From assembly GCA_964016885.1 (NCBI GenBank), contig OZ024743.1, positions 59,768,001-59,832,000 on the forward strand: a stretch of 64,000 nucleotides of DNA, read 5' to 3'. Numbering within the stretch: position 1 is the stretch's first letter; the number at the start of each line of letters is the position of its first letter. The notes below the pieces were generated by a model. The model searched no databases, had not been told where the DNA came from, and worked only from the letters and a program-made list of their open reading frames with translations. This document shows, piece by piece, positions 8,655 through 53,470 of this stretch. Origin of the DNA: Eledone cirrhosa. Its lineage: Eukaryota. Both the position numbers and the translations under genes were made by a program.

Positions 8655-8924
8655 ATAAGTTGTAATAAAATGAAAACGAAATTTCATTTCTCACTCTTAT
8701 ACGGCACTTACTTAAATGTAAGTATGTATGTATACGCACATACACATACGCATACAGACGTACAGTAGCATGCATATACATATATATATATATATATATA
8801 CACATATATACACACAGGTACACATACATATATGTACGTATCAGTTTACAAACGAACAAAGCGGGCGCTATAATAAGCGTCCGCTAAACTGATACGTACA
8901 TATATGTATGTGTACCTGTGTGTA

Positions 8925-8967
<43 letters not shown>

Positions 8968-9407
8968 GCATGCTACTGTACGTCTGTATGAGTATGTGTA
9001 TGTGCGTATACATACATACTTACATTTAAGTAAGTGCCGTACTAAGAGTGAGAAATGAAATTTCGTTTTCATGTTATTACAACTCATCGTTTTCGGTGCG
9101 CCTGACCGATTTAACTCACTCGATATGCAAATTAGGCTGCTCAGCCGTTAATTTTCATAAGGAAAGTATATACTTTCGAACGTTCAACTATCTGGCAGAT
9201 GGGCATACGGTGCTGATGATAGCTAACAGGCTTGAAACTAGTACATCGTTCCTGTGTCAGTGTTGAACAAAAAGGTGACGTGGTTGCCTTAACACCGTGC
9301 GGCATAAATTCAGGCTGTTCAGTTTGTTTACAAACGAACAAAGCGGGCGCTATAATAAGCGTCCGCTAAACTGATACGTGCATATATGTATGTGTACCTG
9401 TGTGTAT

Positions 9408-9439
<32 letters not shown>

Positions 9440-9500
9440 GCATGCTACTGTACGTCTGTATGCGTATGTGTATGTGCGTATACATACATACTTACATATA
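8655..9500 (+). mobile_element. family B non-coding HHR repeat (retrozyme-like): inverted segment plus about 1.3 tandem monomers
   Basis: caaacgaacaaagcgggcgc recurs at 8849 and 9331; 8655-8848 is the reverse complement of about 8886-9080. Confidence 0.75.
9207..9249 (+). ncRNA. minimal type I hammerhead ribozyme (family B)
   Basis: acggtg CTGATGA t-agc-taacag-gct-t GAAA ctag TA catcgt; stem I acggtg/catcgt, palindromic helix III actagt. Confidence 0.8.
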
Positions 9501-11686: not shown

Positions 11687-11901
11687 AAGAACAAAAGATG
11701 GTTAAAAGAGTTCCATGTATTTTATTATGCGCATTTCAATATGTTGATTTAAAACTGCACTATCCACAAGTGTTTTTTAACCTTCATATCATATCTTCCT
11801 ATTTTATCTGATGAAAACACAAATATTATTGCATGATGATATTTGTTTTTGAAATGCGCATAATAAAATACATGGAACTCTTTTAACCATCTTTTGTTCT
11901 T
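11687..11901 (+). mobile_element. family C PLE 3' end with an inverted copy of its own terminus
   Basis: Arms 11687-11739 and 11849-11901; matches the end of the 40189-41383 element. Confidence 0.8.
11800..11870 (+). ncRNA. type I hammerhead ribozyme (family C)
   Basis: tattttat CTGATGA aaacacaaatat..atatttgttttt GAAA tgcgca TA ataaaata; 8-bp stem I, palindromic helix III. Confidence 0.85.
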
Positions 11902-17988: not shown

Positions 17989-18114
<126 letters not shown>

Positions 18115-18174
18115 AGCAAATAAGAAAAAGTTTCAAAATAAATTTTTAAAAATTAACTGTACTTACTATGGTTA

Positions 18175-18259
18175 CCTTTATCGTATCGGTTTAGAGTCTC
18201 AAAAATAAATGGACAGTCCATGCGGCCATCCATTGCAAAGATAAACTCTCGTCAGAAGG
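18175..18259 (-). ncRNA. type I hammerhead, damaged copy (GAAA changed to TAAA)
   Basis: cctt CTGACGA gagt..actc TAAA ccgatacga TA aagg. Confidence 0.6.
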
Positions 18260-18656
18260 ATCTTTTAACTCGGAGAATATAAAATTCCCGAGTTCAAATT
18301 ACGAACTGGCGCTATTCAAAATTGTTCCCGAGATGAGAATAAATGATGTGGAATCAATTCCATCCAGTGCCGTGTGTAAAGATAGAAGTAAAGGCAGGAA
18401 GGTCAGTCTACTACCACTCTAACTAGCAGCAGTCAGAACGACCAGATTTTTTTTTCGACAAAGAGGAGAGTAATAATAAAGTATATATCCCTACACGCAA
18501 AGCGTCTAGCGACACATGTATTGTCCAACCATATGCCAATGTGGTTCAATGGCAGGTTAATAAATTAACGAGCCAGAACATATATAATCAAGGTTTAGCA
18601 AATAAGAAAAAGTTTCAAAATAAATTTTAAAAAATGAACTGTACTCACTATGGTTA

Positions 18657-18741
18657 CCTTTACAGAATCGGTTTCGAGTCTCAAAAATAAATGGGCAGTC
18701 CTTACGGCCATCCATTGCAAAGATAAACTCTCGTCAGAAGG
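18657..18741 (-). ncRNA. type I hammerhead ribozyme (family E)
   Basis: cctt CTGACGA gagt..(long stem II)..actc GAAA ccgattctg TA aagg. Confidence 0.75.
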
Positions 18742-18758
18742 ATCTTTTCACTCGGAGA

Positions 18759-18832
<74 letters not shown>

Positions 18833-18886: not shown

Positions 18887-19541
18887 CGCAACCAAATTGT
18901 TATCAAACGCTTATAACTCGGTCCTTCATAATGTACTAGCAGAGGTACCCGGCGTTGCCCGGTATAACTCTCAATGGAGTAGTCGTTCAAATGAACCGAA
19001 AGACTTCCGTTAAACACGACTATAGAAGTATCCATTTATAGGTGTTGGCCCTAAAGATGGCCTTTGAATGTTCACTTTGAAATATCCCTGTGGCGGTGCT
19101 CCCAGCAAAGACGAATCCGATGGTAACAATTTAAAGTTGGTGGCCCTAAAAAGAACCTTGGACCGTTCACTCTTAAAAGTCTTAGCGGCGTATTTGATTT
19201 GCTTCTTATTTAAGATTGTAACCTAGAAAAGCATGTAACAGTCGGTGGCCACAAAAACAGCCTTGGCAAGATCACGCTGGAATGTCAAAAAAAAATGCGT
19301 AAATAAGATGTAGGGAAAAGTAGATTAATTAGGTTAAAACTACGGAACATCTGTAGCAAAGCATAATAGCAACATATAAATGTGGAAAACGGAGACATTG
19401 AACATGTATAACGTATAGCAAAAGTAACATCAGAGGCGTACCTGGTATTTTCAAAAGGACAAAAATAGCACACGGATACAGCAAATGTAAGGCACTTATA
19501 CAAAAAGAAAGCCAGCGATTACTTGTTGGCGGATGGAGTGC

Positions 19542-22500
19542 CTACAAAACTTCCTTATAGACTATATTTTGGGTTTTTCTCGTGAGCTGCAAAAGCACAT
19601 AGGTTATGTCGGCTCCCCACTCGAGAGCAGCCAACATATAGTTGACTATGGGAGAAGCACGGTTCTTCTAAGTTAAGCCCTACGACTTGTTAATCGACAT
19701 GGCGAAACTGAGTCGGAGAGGAAATTGCAGCCTTCTGAATGTGAAATGAATGTCTTTACCGGATGGAATGAGAGGTGTCCTTGGTATGAAGACAGTATCC
19801 CCCTTACCACATCCTGTAAGTATTGTTGCCTCAATAACATGAGGCATCGCGTTTTGGATGGCCAGACGCGTGCCATTGGAAAGCCTTCGGGGTTAAAAAT
19901 TTCTGAGGAGCATGACAGGCGCACCTTTCTTAAGTCGCAGTAAATGTAGTGGCAAACCGGGAGGATCTAGGGAGTTAAGAAATTATGTGCGGTAATTAAC
20001 AATTTCGTCCGGATCAGCCATAGAGTCAAGTGACTTGTAGACGTGTAGGTTTCCAGACAAGCACAGCATGTTCATTGATGTTTCCAACTATGTGGTTTTT
20101 CGAAGCCAATATTTCGCGTTCACACAACCACTCTTGATTTATGTAGTTCTCCTCAAGATTAGGAAAAACAGACGTCCGTAACTCAGCAATTGACTTAACA
20201 CATCTGCTAATCCCTGTGATGTCCTCTGTACGAACTCCGTCGAGTGGGATCTCCCAACAACAACATGGCAGCAGCAAAACCCGCTGATGTCTCATCACCT
20301 TGCAGTTTTGCTCTCATGTTTTTTGTAAGCGGCAGCTTTCTTACATAATGCCAAAGCGTGGAGGCCTTAAGGCATGCACCAACCTCATCAGCCCACGTAC
20401 CTTTTGGGATTACAGGAAGAGTCTGTCGGAAGTCCCCAGATAACAGGAAAGTTATTGGTCCTTGACAGTACCTGATGTCTCTGAGTGATCGGTATAGTGC
20501 ATCGAAAGCCGCTCTGTGGTTCATTGTGCATTCGTCCCAAACAATAAGTAGGCAGCGCTTTAACACCTGTGCTTTTCCGGAAGACTTGCTGATGTTGCAC
20601 GTGGGTGTCTCAGATGATGCCACGTTGAGAGGAAGACTGAAGGCAGAATGGGCCGTCCTGAAACCAGACAGCAAAGTTGCTGCAATGCCGGAAGAAGCCA
20701 CAGCCAATGCGATGTTTCCGTGTTGCTTCACTGCAGCGAGTAAAAGTTTGATTACAAATGTTTTTTTCCCGTGCCTCCAGGTTCGTCCAGGAAGAATATA
20801 CTCCCTCCCCGATTACGGATGGAATCAACGACAATGTTGTAGGCTTGTTTTTGATCCATTAGAAGTTTTGGTTCATTTTCTTTAACATACCTTATGAGTT
20901 CGTCGACATCATATGACGTTTCACGTATAATGTCGTTGGGAATGTCAGATGGCGCATCTCGAAGTGTATGCGGAAGCCCGTATTTCTCCAAGACATCTCC
21001 GCCCATTAAAGCCACTCTGTCTTCAATATCGATCAGAGCTCTGTTATATATAGCGTCTGAAAAGCCGACATCTAAGTTTTGACATTGCAATTGAGCGAGA
21101 CGCCTATATTCGTCTGCGAAATCATATTTAAACTTTTGCCATAAAGAGTAAGGATCGCTCAATTCACAAACGTGCAAGAGGATAGCAAAAAGTGCTCTTA
21201 GACTACGGGATGATTGTGAGATGGCAGCTTCCGTCAAGGTTGCATCCCATTGTGCGTCATCTTCTAAAAGTCCACGTCTCAAGCAGACTTCCCTGTACGT
21301 TCCGCAGGTGTATCCATCGACGGCCCTCTTACCCCATGAAACAGAAGTCGCAGGTAGAAGCATTCGTGTTGGGTAGGGTGGATCGTATAAACTCTCCCAA
21401 GGCAATTGCCTGGATGTCCAACCACCTCCTGCCCTACCTTCCTTCGTAGCCATTTTGTTCGGTTCCATGTATAGTAAGACGATATTTCAGAATACAGCAG
21501 AGTTCTAGCGAAGTGGTCGTGTTGACAAAGTTTGAAAAAAGCGGTGAGTGTAGTTTCCTTTGGTGAGATCGTTAGCTGAGCAGTTGTTACATCATTGAAA
21601 TACACCCGTTGACCGTTTTCAAGGTGAACGGCAAGTTGTTCAATGACGGGGTGTCGTTGGTACAGTGGGAAGCTAAAAACGCACCAAAAGCTTCATTGCT
21701 GCTAATGAATCGGCCGGCTTGGTATTCAGATACCTCCTCTCTACTGTTTTCATGACGAAGACCAAAGACGGCAGCATCCGATCCCTTGTTTACGTACTTA
21801 CAAACGTATTTAATTGCTTTTGCTGAGTTGCAAAATTCGAAGTTTATATGGGCGTTGAACGATTTCAAATAGAGGGGGCAATATGGCACTATCCAGCTGT
21901 TGTCGATTTCGCGTTCACCAACTTTTACTGTGAACCCACCGTCTTCAGGTCTCCTGCGCCTAAACAACGGATATCCGTCACCGCCAGTCTGTGTTTCCTG
22001 TAAAAACGGCCTGGGATATCGTTTTGTAAACTTTCGTAGTTTATGCACGGGAACTTCATATTGAGTCCATGTCCGCAAGGGCCATGGATCATGTTTGATG
22101 TGACTATAGAGAAGAGGTCCTTGTCAATCGACAGATCAGGTAGTTCGGCAGAAACGAATTTATCGATGTTGTTTGAACTGATTTTTGTAACCAACCAAAT
22201 CAAGATATGGGCATGCGGCAGTCCTCGTTTCTGCCATTCAACCGTGTACATATCGCACCTGACAGGCCCCAAAACATGTCCTTTCTTTAATAAATCAATT
22301 AACTTGGATAATTTCAGGCGAAACACTCTTGCTATGTGATCGTGCCTGTGTCTAAGCGCTTGACCGTGAAACAGTTCGTTTGTAATCTCCTTCCACTTGG
22401 GATTGCATGTAAACGTTATGGTCAGGGCGCCCATAATGCCGTACGTAGGTCATGGCGCCCTGAGTCCTCTCGTGCATGTTAACGTTGAAGGCAAAATACA

Positions 22501-24092
22501 CATTTGCCCTAAATTGTCTGGGGTTACGTCGTTGTTAATTCCATCGTGTAGATGAATGTAGCATTCAGATCGAAGTTTCGTTTGATTTAATTTAGTGAAC
22601 CATAATCTCTTGGACTCCATTTTAACGGCCATATCAACAGCAAATTGTTGGAAAAGGTCCCGAGAACGGTGTAGATGGTTGAATGAATTGTCCCTTACCA
22701 TAAATCGTAGAGCGTAGAAATCCATGCAGGTGACAGTTTTCCTAAGATATGCCTCAACATTGCCTGCCGATGTTGAGGAATGCCGAAATAGTATCCGTCC
22801 TCGCCGTTGACAAATAGCAATGGATACTGGAGTGCATCGTAGGACATGTGTGTCTCATTGATACGTTATAATGTGCTGTCTCGGTGCTTTAGAATGATAT
22901 CTCTCTTATTGTGCTGTTCACCACAAATAACCGCAACAATCTCATTACATGTTGGTGCGTTGAACCGACCAGCATGTTCTCCAGATGGCCTTCGGTCAGC
23001 ATGTATGAAAACACTAAAGTTTTGGTCGGTGGCTGTTTCCAAACTGTACCTGAAACTGCGAACATGGCTGTTTTTGTCATGAAGCATGTCTTGAAGTTTT
23101 ATTATAGTTCCAATGTTTAGTTTCGGACGAAATAGAGTTTCTCATCTTTGCCTGCTCCTGATAGTTTCCAACGAAGTATAACTGGAGAAATTGTGGATCC
23201 TTTTCTGCCAGAGGTTGAGTAGACCCAATCAAGTGGTAAATCTGCCGCTGGAGCTTGAAAGTTGGCATGAACCCACGTACCGAGGCAGGCTTTGCTCCGA
23301 AGGATGTCATCTGAAACGCGGAATTGTAGCGGCGGATATTACGCAGAAACTTCGATGATTCCTCCGTCGTGTCTGTCAAAAGGAGTTGCAATGTATCTGG
23401 AGGGTCGTGAATAGGAGGTAGTCTAAATGTACCGTTTGAACAGCACATTCCATCTCTCTTCCCTGGCCACTTTTTCGTACGACAAAACTGGCAAGTAGAG
23501 GTAATTTGCCCAATTTGAATATATGCTTGGACGGCATAGTCGGAGGAGGGGTCGTAGTTAAAATCTTCAACAACCATCGTGGATTGCAAGTCTTAGTAAT
23601 GTCACGTAACGATGATCGCCGCTGTTAACTTTGCAGAATTCGGCCACGACGTTACCCTATGGTTTCAGTATTTCGTGCAGCAGCAGTTGCAGTGGCGTCC
23701 CTGCTTTGTCGAACGGCGCGTCGTCCTTCATCCTGTCGTGCCCGAGCAGCAGATGTTGCAGTGGCGTCCCTGCTTTGTCGAACGGCGCGTCGTCCTTCAT
23801 CCTCTCGTGCCTGAGCAGCGGATGTCGCAGTGGCGTCCCTTCTACGTCGAACGGCACGTCGTCCTTGAAACCTCTCGTGCGCGAGCAGCAGCAGTCGCAG
23901 CAGCACTTTTGCTCCTGCGAATTTCACGTCGACTGCCATCCTCCTCCGCTCTTGCAGCTGCCGTCTGCACATCATTCTGTAAGAGCCTGATCGCAGTTGC
24001 ATTTACATCTTCGGTGAGACGCCTTCGCTTAGACCTACTTCCATCATTAGATAATCGACCAATGAGCGTTCTTTTCTGGGGGCGGGGGGCAT
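19542..24092 (-). pseudogene. Helitron RepHel protein (HUH Rep + Pif1-like SF1 helicase), many frameshifts and stops
   Basis: ITFTCNPKW; VEWQKRGLPHAHIL; IKYVCKYVNKG; PGGTGK; IVWDECTM; GDFRQTLPV; FAMSINKS; QLYVGCSRV; ends NIVYKEVL*. Confidence 0.92.
23680..23960 (-). repeat. 69-bp coding tandem repeat (23 aa) in the RepHel N-terminus
   Basis: agtggcgtcc at 23691, 23760 and 23829; unit EGRRAVRQSRDATATSAARARQD. Confidence 0.85.
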
Positions 24093-49876: not shown

Positions 49877-49932
<56 letters not shown>

Positions 49933-49935
<3 letters not shown>

Positions 49936-50184
49936 TGTAATAAACAACATAAGGCAATTATTCCATTTACCTGTGGTTTCTTAAAAGCAAAAGATTTTGC
50001 TTTCAATCCTCAGAATGAAAAGGATTTTTTTCATTCTGAGGATTGAAAGCAAAATCTTTTGCTTTTAAGAAACCACTGGTAAATAGAATAATTGCCTTAT
50101 GTTGTTTATTACATAATTATTAAGCTCTGTTACCTACATAGAGCACTCTTTTGTCCTGGACTTTCCGACGGAATTACTTCATTT
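49933..50184. mobile_element. fold-back element in (TA)n (palindrome 49933-50116 plus unpaired tail)
   Basis: Near-perfect arms of about 90 bp; right arm has GAAA gcaaaa-tc-ttttgc TT just after the central hairpin. Confidence 0.7.
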
Positions 50185-50199
50185 ATATATATATATATG

Positions 50200-50292
<93 letters not shown>

Positions 50293-50307
50293 GTATATAT
50301 ACATATA

Positions 50308-50428
<121 letters not shown>

Positions 50429-50461
50429 AATATACTTATATATATATATTTTTTTTCTATT

Positions 50462-53400
50462 CTGAGGCGGGTAAAATTCCCGAGATCCATGGACGAGTTT
50501 TCTCCAGCGGTTTCTGTCCCTCATTATCGCTGCCATGTCCTGCGTCTCCAACAGACCAGTGTCTGTCTTTAGGGCATCAACATACGTTAACCTTGGTCTT
50601 CCACTTCTAGTGTGTCCATGTAGGGGCTCCCACAGGAACATTGAGTGTAATGTAAACTCTGGATGTCGGTGAGCATGTCCAGCTAACCTCAGTCTCCTCT
50701 GTGTCACTTTTGACCTGACTTTTGGGATGCTCCCATACAGCTCTGAGTGTTTCATCCTCAGTGTATACTGATTAATGTTCAGAGCCATCCTCAGCATTCT
50801 CGTGTAGCACCCATCCACCATCTGAGTGAGTTTCTTGGTTAGTGTCCAAGTCTCAGACCCGTACAGCAGCACAGACTCCACTACAACAATGAAGAGGCGG
50901 ATTTTCAGGTCTTCACGAAGGTCCGACTTCCACACCGATCTCAAGCTGTGGCACGCCGCCCAGGCTTTGCCCTTCCTCTCAACCACATTATCTTCCGTAT
51001 TCCCAATCTTTGCTCCCAAATACAGGAAGGCCTCAACCAATTCTAGCGGCTTTCCGCCTACGTTAGTGATCCCCTTTGGCTTCTCAACATTCTCTACCAT
51101 ATATTTTGTTTTAGTCTCATTCATTCTCAGCCACACATTCATCGGCACAGTCTCAATCTCCCGCATCAAATCCTCTGCTTCCTTCACTGTATTTGTTACC
51201 AAAACTATGTCGTCGGCAAATTCAGCATCCGATACCTTTTTCGCCTTAACTCTCCTGCTCTGAGCCGGTGCTACAATAAAGCCAGAGTCCTGGTGTTTCT
51301 CCAGTACAAGGCGCATACAATAGTCCACTACGATGATAAAAAGGTAGGGAGCCAATGTATCTCCCTGGAGCACTCCAGCCAATATCTCTGCCATCCCATC
51401 AGATGTAATGACTTGGGCTTTGGTGTTGGTGTAGAGCAGTGATATCAGGTCCACTATCTTTTTGGAGATACCATAAGCCTGTAAGATCTTCATCAGGCAG
51501 TAACGGTCCACAGAATCAAAGAACTTCCTAAAGTCAATGAAAACCATGACCGCAGGAAGGCACTTTGCTCTAGCTCCCTCTAATATCCTCCTCAGCATCA
51601 GGATGTGACTGGTGGTTGATCTTCCCTCTCTGAAGCCGTTCTGTTTTTCTCTGAGCTTCTTCTCCATCTCAGGCTGGATCCTGTTAAGAATCATCTTGTT
51701 GAGGGTCTTTGCCACAAGTGACGTCAGTGAGATCCCCCTGTAGTTGTTGGTGTTAGAGAGATCTCGCTTCTTTGGCACTGGGACGATGTTACTGATCATC
51801 CACTGATTCGGGGCAACTCCTTTCTCCAGTGCCCGGTTACAGAACCCCAGGATGATATCATCAAAATCACACCTCTTCATCACCTCTGATGCCACTCCAT
51901 CCTCTCCATGAGCCTTGCCCTCCTTGATCTTCTTCTTGGCTCTCTGAAGCTCCTCTCTGGTGAAGGGCTCTATCTCAACATCCAGTTCCCCAAACAGCCG
52001 CCTGATCTCCCCAGTGCTCTGGGCTGTGGAGGGTGGCTCTCCTAGTAGAGTCCTAAAATGGTCTAGCCATTTCCTCTTCCTATCCTCGGGCTCCTTTCCC
52101 TGGATCTGACTCGAACACATTCTCTTCCTCCCTGTGATCTCGTTGCTGATCATCCAGCTCTCCTTACATCCAGACCTGCCAACCATTCTCCCACACTTCT
52201 GTCTTCTCTATCAGTGCCTCCTCTCTGACCTCAGTGTAAGCGGTACAGAGTTCTTCCTCATCACCTCCAGAGTCTCCATCCTCTCCTCCGTAGGATCAGC
52301 ATAGAATTGGTCCTTGGCAGCTTTCAGGTGTTCTCTGGCTGCACACACTTTTGGGTTTGCAGAGATGACGTGCTTCCTTTTGTTCTTTTTCCTCGGCACC
52401 AGGGTTTCACTTGCTTCCGCCACTGCATTGGCGAAGTGCCCGTACCTCCTCGTCACACTCTCCTCAGTCCATCCAATCTCTCTCTACTCTGACTCTCCAC
52501 ACAGAGCACTGAACCTGTTTCTCACTTCCACTGTGAACCTCTCCTGTAGCTTATCATCTTCCTTGAAAGCTCCCCATTCATAGATTGCTCTCCGGGGCCA
52601 AGCCTTGCTCTTTCTTAAGCTCACCCGGACCTCACTCATAACAAGCCGGTGGTCACTACCCAGTGTACTGAAATAGTTGTATGGTTCTGTGTTCAGAACA
52701 CTATTCCGTCACTTTTTCCTCACCAGAATGAAATCAATCTGGGACTTGAACAGGTGCATATCTGAGATGTAGGTAAACATCTTCCCCAGATTCTTCCTAA
52801 ACCTTAAGTTGGTCGCTATCACGTTCGCCTCCAGTAGGGTGTCTCTCAGTAGTCTTCCATTTCGGTTGGTGTTGTTATGGAAGTACCAGCAATGATCTTC
52901 ACTGCCCTCCTTACTCAGATGTGCATTGAAGTCCCCCAAAACAAGCAGGATATTGTGTGCCTGTATGGTGTTGACAGCTCTACACACCTCCTCATGGAAC
53001 TCTTCCGCACTCACATCACTGTCCCCATCGGTTGGATTATAGGCTGGGATGACTGTCAGTCTTGGGTTTCCATTGAAGGTCACCCTCAACACTCGCGGGG
53101 AGACAGGCATTATTTCCCTCACCAATAGATTGGTTTTTGCAATGAACACAAAACCCACTCCTCCTACTGCAGCATTTGTTGTGTTCTTCACTGCCGATGT
53201 AGTGATGAGCTGGCTCCTCTTCCCGATCATCACACTCCTCACGGGCTCATCGTGTATGATCCTGTGTTCTTGGATCGCAAGTATCTGTATACCACTCTCT
53301 TCGAACAGATGTCCCAACTCCTTTCTCTTCTCCAGCGTCCGAATAGTCCTCACATTCAAAGTGTCCATTTTGATGGCTCTTCTGCAGGACAAAACTGCAT

Positions 53401-53470
53401 TCTTTATATTTGTCTCATTCTTTATATTTGTCTCATTCTTTAATTTGTCTCATTCTTTATATTCGTCCTG
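50462..53470 (-). mobile_element. RTE-group LINE, near-complete APE + RT ORF with a few disruptions
   Basis: APE: TLNVRT, LAIQEHR, LGDFNAH, QIDFILV, SDHRLV. RT: [48 protein letters not shown]. Confidence 0.92.

Follow-up and report, generated by a model that had tools for sequence, protein, structure and literature searches.

The window, the whole 64,000-nt stretch of Eledone cirrhosa DNA that was analysed, carries on its minus strand a one-armed insertion of 1.36 monomers (18111..18765), which runs through monomer positions 1-482 and then again through positions 1-173. Position 1 of the monomer is 18765, and the predicted hammerhead cut falls between positions 105 and 106. As an earlier, sequence-only reading of this DNA had noted, the unit is embedded in (TA)n, with a (TA)n target microsatellite on its 5' side (18766..18819) and a (TA)n/(TG)n target microsatellite on its 3' side (17994..18110). 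The one whole monomer (18284..18765, minus strand) is 482 bp long, compared with 484 bp in the majority of its family, to which it is 97% identical. The terminal partial unit (18111..18283, minus strand) halts 13 nt before the usual end site, E1, and enters degenerate (TA)n. The two units appear as a direct repeat of 173 nt (18111-18283 and 18593-18765) with 93% identity and a spacing of 482 nt. The minus-strand motif CCTT-CTGACGA-GAGT...ACTC-(G/T)AAA...TA-AAGG, previously noticed in repeats of about 170 bp, is found in both 173-nt copies. These repeats had been taken to flank a spacer. Family copies elsewhere are head-to-tail runs of variable length, from a fraction of one unit up to about nine units, so that what looked like repeats flanking a spacer is the overlap within a 1.36-mer and not a pair of terminal repeats. 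An LTR reading of the family was ruled out because the overlap length differs between loci.

Each unit contains a predicted type I hammerhead on the minus strand, and the two predicted cuts (18661/18660 and 18179/18178) are exactly 482 bp apart, as had been claimed. In the upper hammerhead (18657..18741), helix I pairs 18741-18738 with 18660-18657, the core CTGACGA occupies 18737-18731, helix II has a 55-nt extension, GAAA lies at 18675-18672 and helix III at 18671-18663, where a G>T change at 18664 disrupts one pair. The lower hammerhead (18175..18259) is core-dead, with GAAA changed to TAAA at 18193 and a G>A change at 18181. The sequence-only reading had described the lower copy as damaged, which these two changes bear out, but the upper copy is damaged too. 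Relative to the family majority, the upper unit has four differences in 173 positions, including the helix III change at 18664, and the lower unit has eight, which include the first letter of GAAA (18193) and the G preceding the cut triplet (18181); the family letters at the mutated sites of the lower hammerhead are also present in public contigs. With one hammerhead dead in its core and the other damaged in helix III, release of a 482-nt monomer from this locus, as formerly proposed, is unlikely, and the window copy is probably inert, judging from its sequence. Two consecutive complete hammerheads, absent here, do occur elsewhere in the family, for example at L002, L004 and L271. The overlapping units mismatch at 12 of 173 positions, twice the within-locus mean of the family, and three of these mismatches fall on common subfamily sites; a template switch is a possible source of the mismatches.

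Several features follow the upper cut on the minus strand. Twelve nucleotides beyond it lies the sequence GTGAGT (18643..18648), which resembles a splice donor, and a similar motif occupies the equivalent place in distant homologous repeat families. E1, the sequence TATATAT (18580..18586), lies 81 nt beyond the cut and is the commonest 3' end among family copies. From E1 to a second end site, E2 (about 18473-18482), extends a 'tail' of about 109 nt (18473..18579). Within it, the segment 18540-18568 is common to other hammerhead repeat families and has 4,490 exact matches in the genome; this tail motif is a candidate protein-binding site.

The family is large. A search of the 3.0-Gb host genome with the window monomer gave 2,467 candidates, 40 of which were scored. 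A 26-mer from the 3' half of the hammerhead has 626 exact matches, and the whole hammerhead motif, with two subfamilies taken together, has 1,713 intact matches. The reversed control of each search found none, so the motif is not a product of chance. A one-off local duplication, which the sequence-only reading had allowed for, is ruled out by this copy number and by the dispersal of the copies. Whole monomers, of which 31 were obtained from 26 loci, range from 474 to 489 bp and have a mean identity of 94%. Monomer GC content is 0.38. The absence of an open reading frame, claimed previously, holds for the ribozyme strand, where the longest stop-free run is 63 codons, but not for the opposite strand, where an ATG frame of 84 codons is found in the family majority. 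That frame looks incidental, since a common 1-nt deletion variant falls within it. A reading frame for reverse transcriptase plus GIY-YIG endonuclease is absent from the 484-bp unit.

The 3' ends of the insertions suggest how they were made. Ends were scored in 75 distinct loci on contig C1, which represent most of the first 100 entries in the list of 626 matches; four duplicates and loci already obtained by other searches were excluded. The 3' end falls at positions 183-192 (E1) in 63 of their 112 arms, at 284-301 (E2) in 35 and elsewhere in 14, and the 5' ends are scattered over the monomer. A TA run follows the end in 50/63 arms at E1, in 26/35 at E2 and in 1/14 at other places. Two diverging arms are found in 31 of the 75 loci; 26 of the 31 combine E1 with E2, five have one odd end, and E1+E1 or E2+E2 pairing does not occur among them. 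If the ends were chosen independently, the chance of 26 unlike pairs would be at most 0.5^26. In the full set of 134 loci, 36 of 46 two-armed insertions are E1+E2 and two are E1+E1. A subfamily with 82% identity uses the same two end places despite different letters there, and its ends each lie within 4-5 nt of TA common with the target. Both E1 and E2 are predicted to be single-stranded.

These fixed paired ends are the known 'tail' footprint of Penelope-like elements (PLEs). In the available text of the relevant papers, PLEs are described as forming tandem and inverted insertions, often with a tail at a single end and with a bias for (TA)n (PMC8557442); a 31-bp tail is optionally present on one of their inverted pseudo-LTRs (PMC3846280); and two internal priming sites delimit the tail while both DNA strands are extended (PMC11167929). 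The 484-bp family resembles the PLE pseudo-LTR and tail, as far as these accounts and PMC4209133 present them, in its partial tandems, its inverted 5'-truncated arm, its single-end tail, its (TA)n bias and its hammerhead with a palindromic helix III. It differs in having no RT/GIY-YIG frame, in a tail of about 109 nt compared with 30-40 nt in PLEs, and in ends that have 4-7 nt of TA in common with the target; the reported priming sites of the lizard PLE are, by contrast, non-homologous to the cut DNA. In an autonomous young PLE family of the same genome, the 10 inverted pairs examined comprise seven long+short, one long+short-like, two long+long and no short+short combinations. It is therefore very likely that PLE-encoded reverse transcriptase and endonuclease mobilised the 484-bp family. 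Movement by a LINE or Helitron, or an origin as an endogenised viroid-like RNA, is by comparison very improbable. LINE and Helitron pieces are frequent in the window, but the family has neither poly(A) nor a single 3' end, its ends being internal and paired as in PLEs, and viral contigs gave 0 matches.

PLE candidates in the genome number in the tens of thousands according to three PLE protein searches, and long open frames are present in many of them. An autonomous PLE sharing sequence with the 484-bp family was not found among the three abundant and about eight minor families sampled, nor did the terminal sequences of 114 endonuclease hits reveal such a partner. Examination of 30 of the 4,490 tail-motif loci, together with a profile search of the collected loci, returned only other non-coding hammerhead families. 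Several of these are distant from the 484-bp family and have the same post-cut layout, with the donor-like motif, an AT-rich stretch and the tail motif. Loci L247, L241, L214, L074, L150 and L199 belong to at least three further, distant hammerhead repeat families (with a period of about 660 in one of them), which have the post-cut layout and the tail motif in common with the 484-bp family.

The anatomy shared with PLEs raises the question of whether the unit is nothing more than a solo pseudo-LTR belonging to an autonomous PLE, with the loci as 5'-truncated copies of that element. PLE ends in this genome do share the order of a hammerhead followed by two TA-rich ends, and frog retrozymes match pseudo-LTRs according to the available text of a recent preprint (10.64898/2026.07.22.740005). 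However, what lies upstream of the hammerhead in the 134 loci is monomer, inverted arm or flank, and PLE frames near the copies are neighbours set off by (TA)n or flank. This explanation is therefore improbable for the present copies, though an ancient origin of the 484-bp unit from a pseudo-LTR is possible.

In the 484-bp family, units diverge by 3.5% within a locus, whether they lie in tandem or on opposite arms, compared with 6.4% between loci. A young subfamily (L271, at G000:C1:82115000-82122200, and L272 among its members) has 82% identity, a period of 483, a perfect helix III palindrome and arrays of up to about nine near-identical units. It was studied in 26 loci, 20 of them picked for arrays or in listing order and six from tail-motif matches, and diverges by 0.3% within arrays, 0.9% across arms and 5.2% between loci. 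At locus L271, eight whole and two partial units are accompanied by an E2 arm, and no more than one base separates the units. Arrays that are homogeneous, although the templates were heterogeneous, fit copying round a circle. Of the locus-private variants in the young subfamily, 16 are present in all covering segments, seven of those on both arms, 53 are single and six occur in only some array units. Copying one circle leaves the last six unexplained, and they indicate that duplication or conversion at the DNA level also occurs. In the subfamily of the window, the 10 shared private variants are all confined to a single arm. A cut linear monomer was rejected as the template, since arms traverse the cut at least once and 5' ends show no accumulation at it; those at positions 98-115 number 7/112 against about four expected, in a sample that favours cut-spanning arms. 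Scars of RNA editing are not evident in the single variants of the 484-bp family (19 A>G and 28 T>C, with A:T cover of 19,153:25,927), in its shared variants (0/10) or in the young subfamily (3 A>G and 6 T>C).

A PLE could also have worked without circles. Uncut linear read-through transcripts of 1.3-2 units would then be the template, longer arrays would arise by later DNA duplication, and the hammerhead would be a kept pseudo-LTR relic or a transcript trimmer. This account is plausible, if short of probable. Most arms are shorter than 1.4 units, variants at L272 and L274 are common to adjacent units only, insertion of a lizard PLE in vitro is reported to proceed without hammerhead cleavage (PMC11167929, in the part available), and local amplification via unequal crossover is discussed in the accessible preprint text (10.64898/2026.07.22.740005). 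It accounts poorly for a nine-unit array that is almost without differences and identical to the opposite arm, though loci differ by 5%, and for a hammerhead core without common variants over subfamilies that are 76-93% identical. On balance, a circle step is the somewhat favoured course.

The copy number and the conservation of the hammerhead bear out the earlier proposal of a retrozyme-like family. CTGANGA is kept in 49 of 55 hammerhead copies and ACTC-GAAA in 40, and 38 retain both a full helix III and the cut site. Helix III consists of three pairs past an A-U pair and is palindromic. Pairing of two copies of it is worth -16.3 kcal/mol in the family and -3.9 and -2.0 kcal/mol for the two copies of the window; palindromic helices of this kind allow dimeric hammerheads, according to the available text of PMC4209133. 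In an alignment of 58 distinct rows and 25 pairs, 93.7% of the cells are paired. Cells changed on both sides number 17, compared with 6.3 in shuffles, and all lie within helix II and its extension; helices I and III have no double changes among the 58 rows, some of which were chosen by the 26-mer, which fixes helix III. Under ViennaRNA, which takes no tertiary contacts into account, helix I (4-5 bp) is not populated, and the active fold carries a penalty of 1.9 kcal/mol in the domain and 3.3 kcal/mol in the circle. The 131-nt upper hammerhead region folded alone is no better than shuffles (z -0.06). Rfam gave no match in the window at the gathering score, and at E values up to 10 in three loci with intact copies it gave only microsatellite-driven hits and no hammerhead.

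Folded as a circle, the majority monomer reaches -133.8 kcal/mol (z -5.95 against 40 shuffles), and the window's own monomer has a z of -3.28. Across four subfamily sets with 76-93% identity there are 19 compensatory pair changes, compared with a null of 8.7 +/- 2.8, and 60 broken pairs, compared with a null of 109 +/- 7; the sets are related, so that these counts are not independent. Pairs are broken by 15 of 56 common variants and by 190 of 381 private ones, a difference that is no longer significant after a transition/transversion split (p 0.10, 0.12). On the modelled fold, the monomer is selected as RNA and the fold is kept through compensatory changes. Such conservation fits a circle and an uncut multimer equally. 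Contigs of unrecorded kind from four of five public runs contain family variants only, with no joint at the cut or at the donor, a result that speaks neither for nor against expression.

By its testable features, the 484-bp repeat adds a new family to the metazoan non-LTR retrozymes already described; two further parts of the class definition, self-cleavage and circular RNA, are predicted features here. As described in the available text of Cervera and de la Pena 2020 (PMC7229834) and of Li, Clavereau and Pollet 2026 (10.64898/2026.07.22.740005), such elements likewise have a type I hammerhead per unit, are short, non-coding tandem repeats of low GC (38% in this family, where the class has under 45%), are dispersed as monomers to multimers, have a strongly self-paired predicted circle and occur in genomes with PLEs. 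The 484-nt unit exceeds the expressed circles of 170-400 nt (PMC7229834) and falls within the 51-972 bp range of the preprint. A helix II with a 55-nt extension sets the family apart, as do its fixed paired ends, which the accessible parts of these two sources do not describe for metazoan non-LTR retrozymes. Plant LTR retrozymes, as these sources present them in part, also have two hammerheads one monomer apart with non-coding sequence between, but their hammerheads are of type III and not type I, and the repeat of the 484-bp family is a variable-length tandem overlap with ragged 5' ends and not an LTR. Among predicted frog retrozymes, eight of nine failed to cleave in vitro, according to the portion of the preprint available. 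The searchable literature, with most subscription papers, Repbase and Dfam outside it, contains no report of the 484-bp family or of paired fixed retrozyme ends; the supplements of the preprint (10.64898/2026.07.22.740005), beyond the part seen, may list related families.

Taken together, the locus is a decayed 1.36-unit copy of a non-LTR retrozyme whose insertion into (TA)n was likely the work of a PLE, with circular or uncut multimeric RNA as the probable template. Tandem copies would be transcribed, and their hammerheads would cleave, likely in dimers held together by the palindromic helix III, after which the monomers would be closed into circles. A PLE protein would then bind the E1-E2 region and break (TA)n, priming would start from a single DNA end or from both, using E1 for one and E2 for the other, and synthesis would pass the cut site and terminate at variable points. 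Tentatively, the PLE enzyme may prime twice on one RNA circle, at two conserved single-stranded TA sites that pair with the broken (TA)n, and so write mirror-image concatemers, with the tail motif as the binding site through which a clan of circles could parasitise one enzyme without a sequence match. Mobilisation of retrozymes by PLE enzymes from a circular template has been proposed (PMC7229834) and, in the accessible preprint text, is supported by co-occurrence and likeness to pseudo-LTRs (10.64898/2026.07.22.740005). The copy in the window is probably dead and belongs to a known class. The family, in turn, provides exact candidate priming sites, E1 and E2, and a candidate binding motif. 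The same genome also contains a very young subfamily whose arrays are almost perfect, as well as young PLEs that have long open frames, and together these sites, arrays and PLEs open the mobilisation proposal to a direct test in vitro.

Other elements of related or mobile character lie in the window. A two-armed repeat in (TA)n at 8718-9495 has a period of 482 (8844-9023 and 9326-9495) and an inverted arm at 8718-8848. A minimal type I hammerhead is discernible by eye on its plus strand at about 9207-9249, with the core at 9213-9219 and a palindromic CTAG helix III. This repeat is probably the family B of the sequence-only reading, which had called it unrelated to the 484-bp family; blastn gives no match between the two, and finds no further match of the 484-bp unit in the window, consistent with that claim. 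A third hammerhead family at 49930-50183 has two diverging arms with two different TA ends and cores at 50013 (minus strand) and 50036 (plus strand). Further type I hammerhead motifs occur at 11808, 40282, 54333 and 62389, of which the last two come after GIY-YIG fragments and look like the ends of autonomous PLEs. Beside the insertion, 18935-18965 holds what we assume to be a start motif of the kind known from non-autonomous Helitrons, and the broken frames at 20207-23592 presumably correspond to a Helitron Rep/helicase. The minus strand of 50183-53449 carries frames for a LINE-type reverse transcriptase (674 codons, RVT_1 E 6e-30) and an AP endonuclease.
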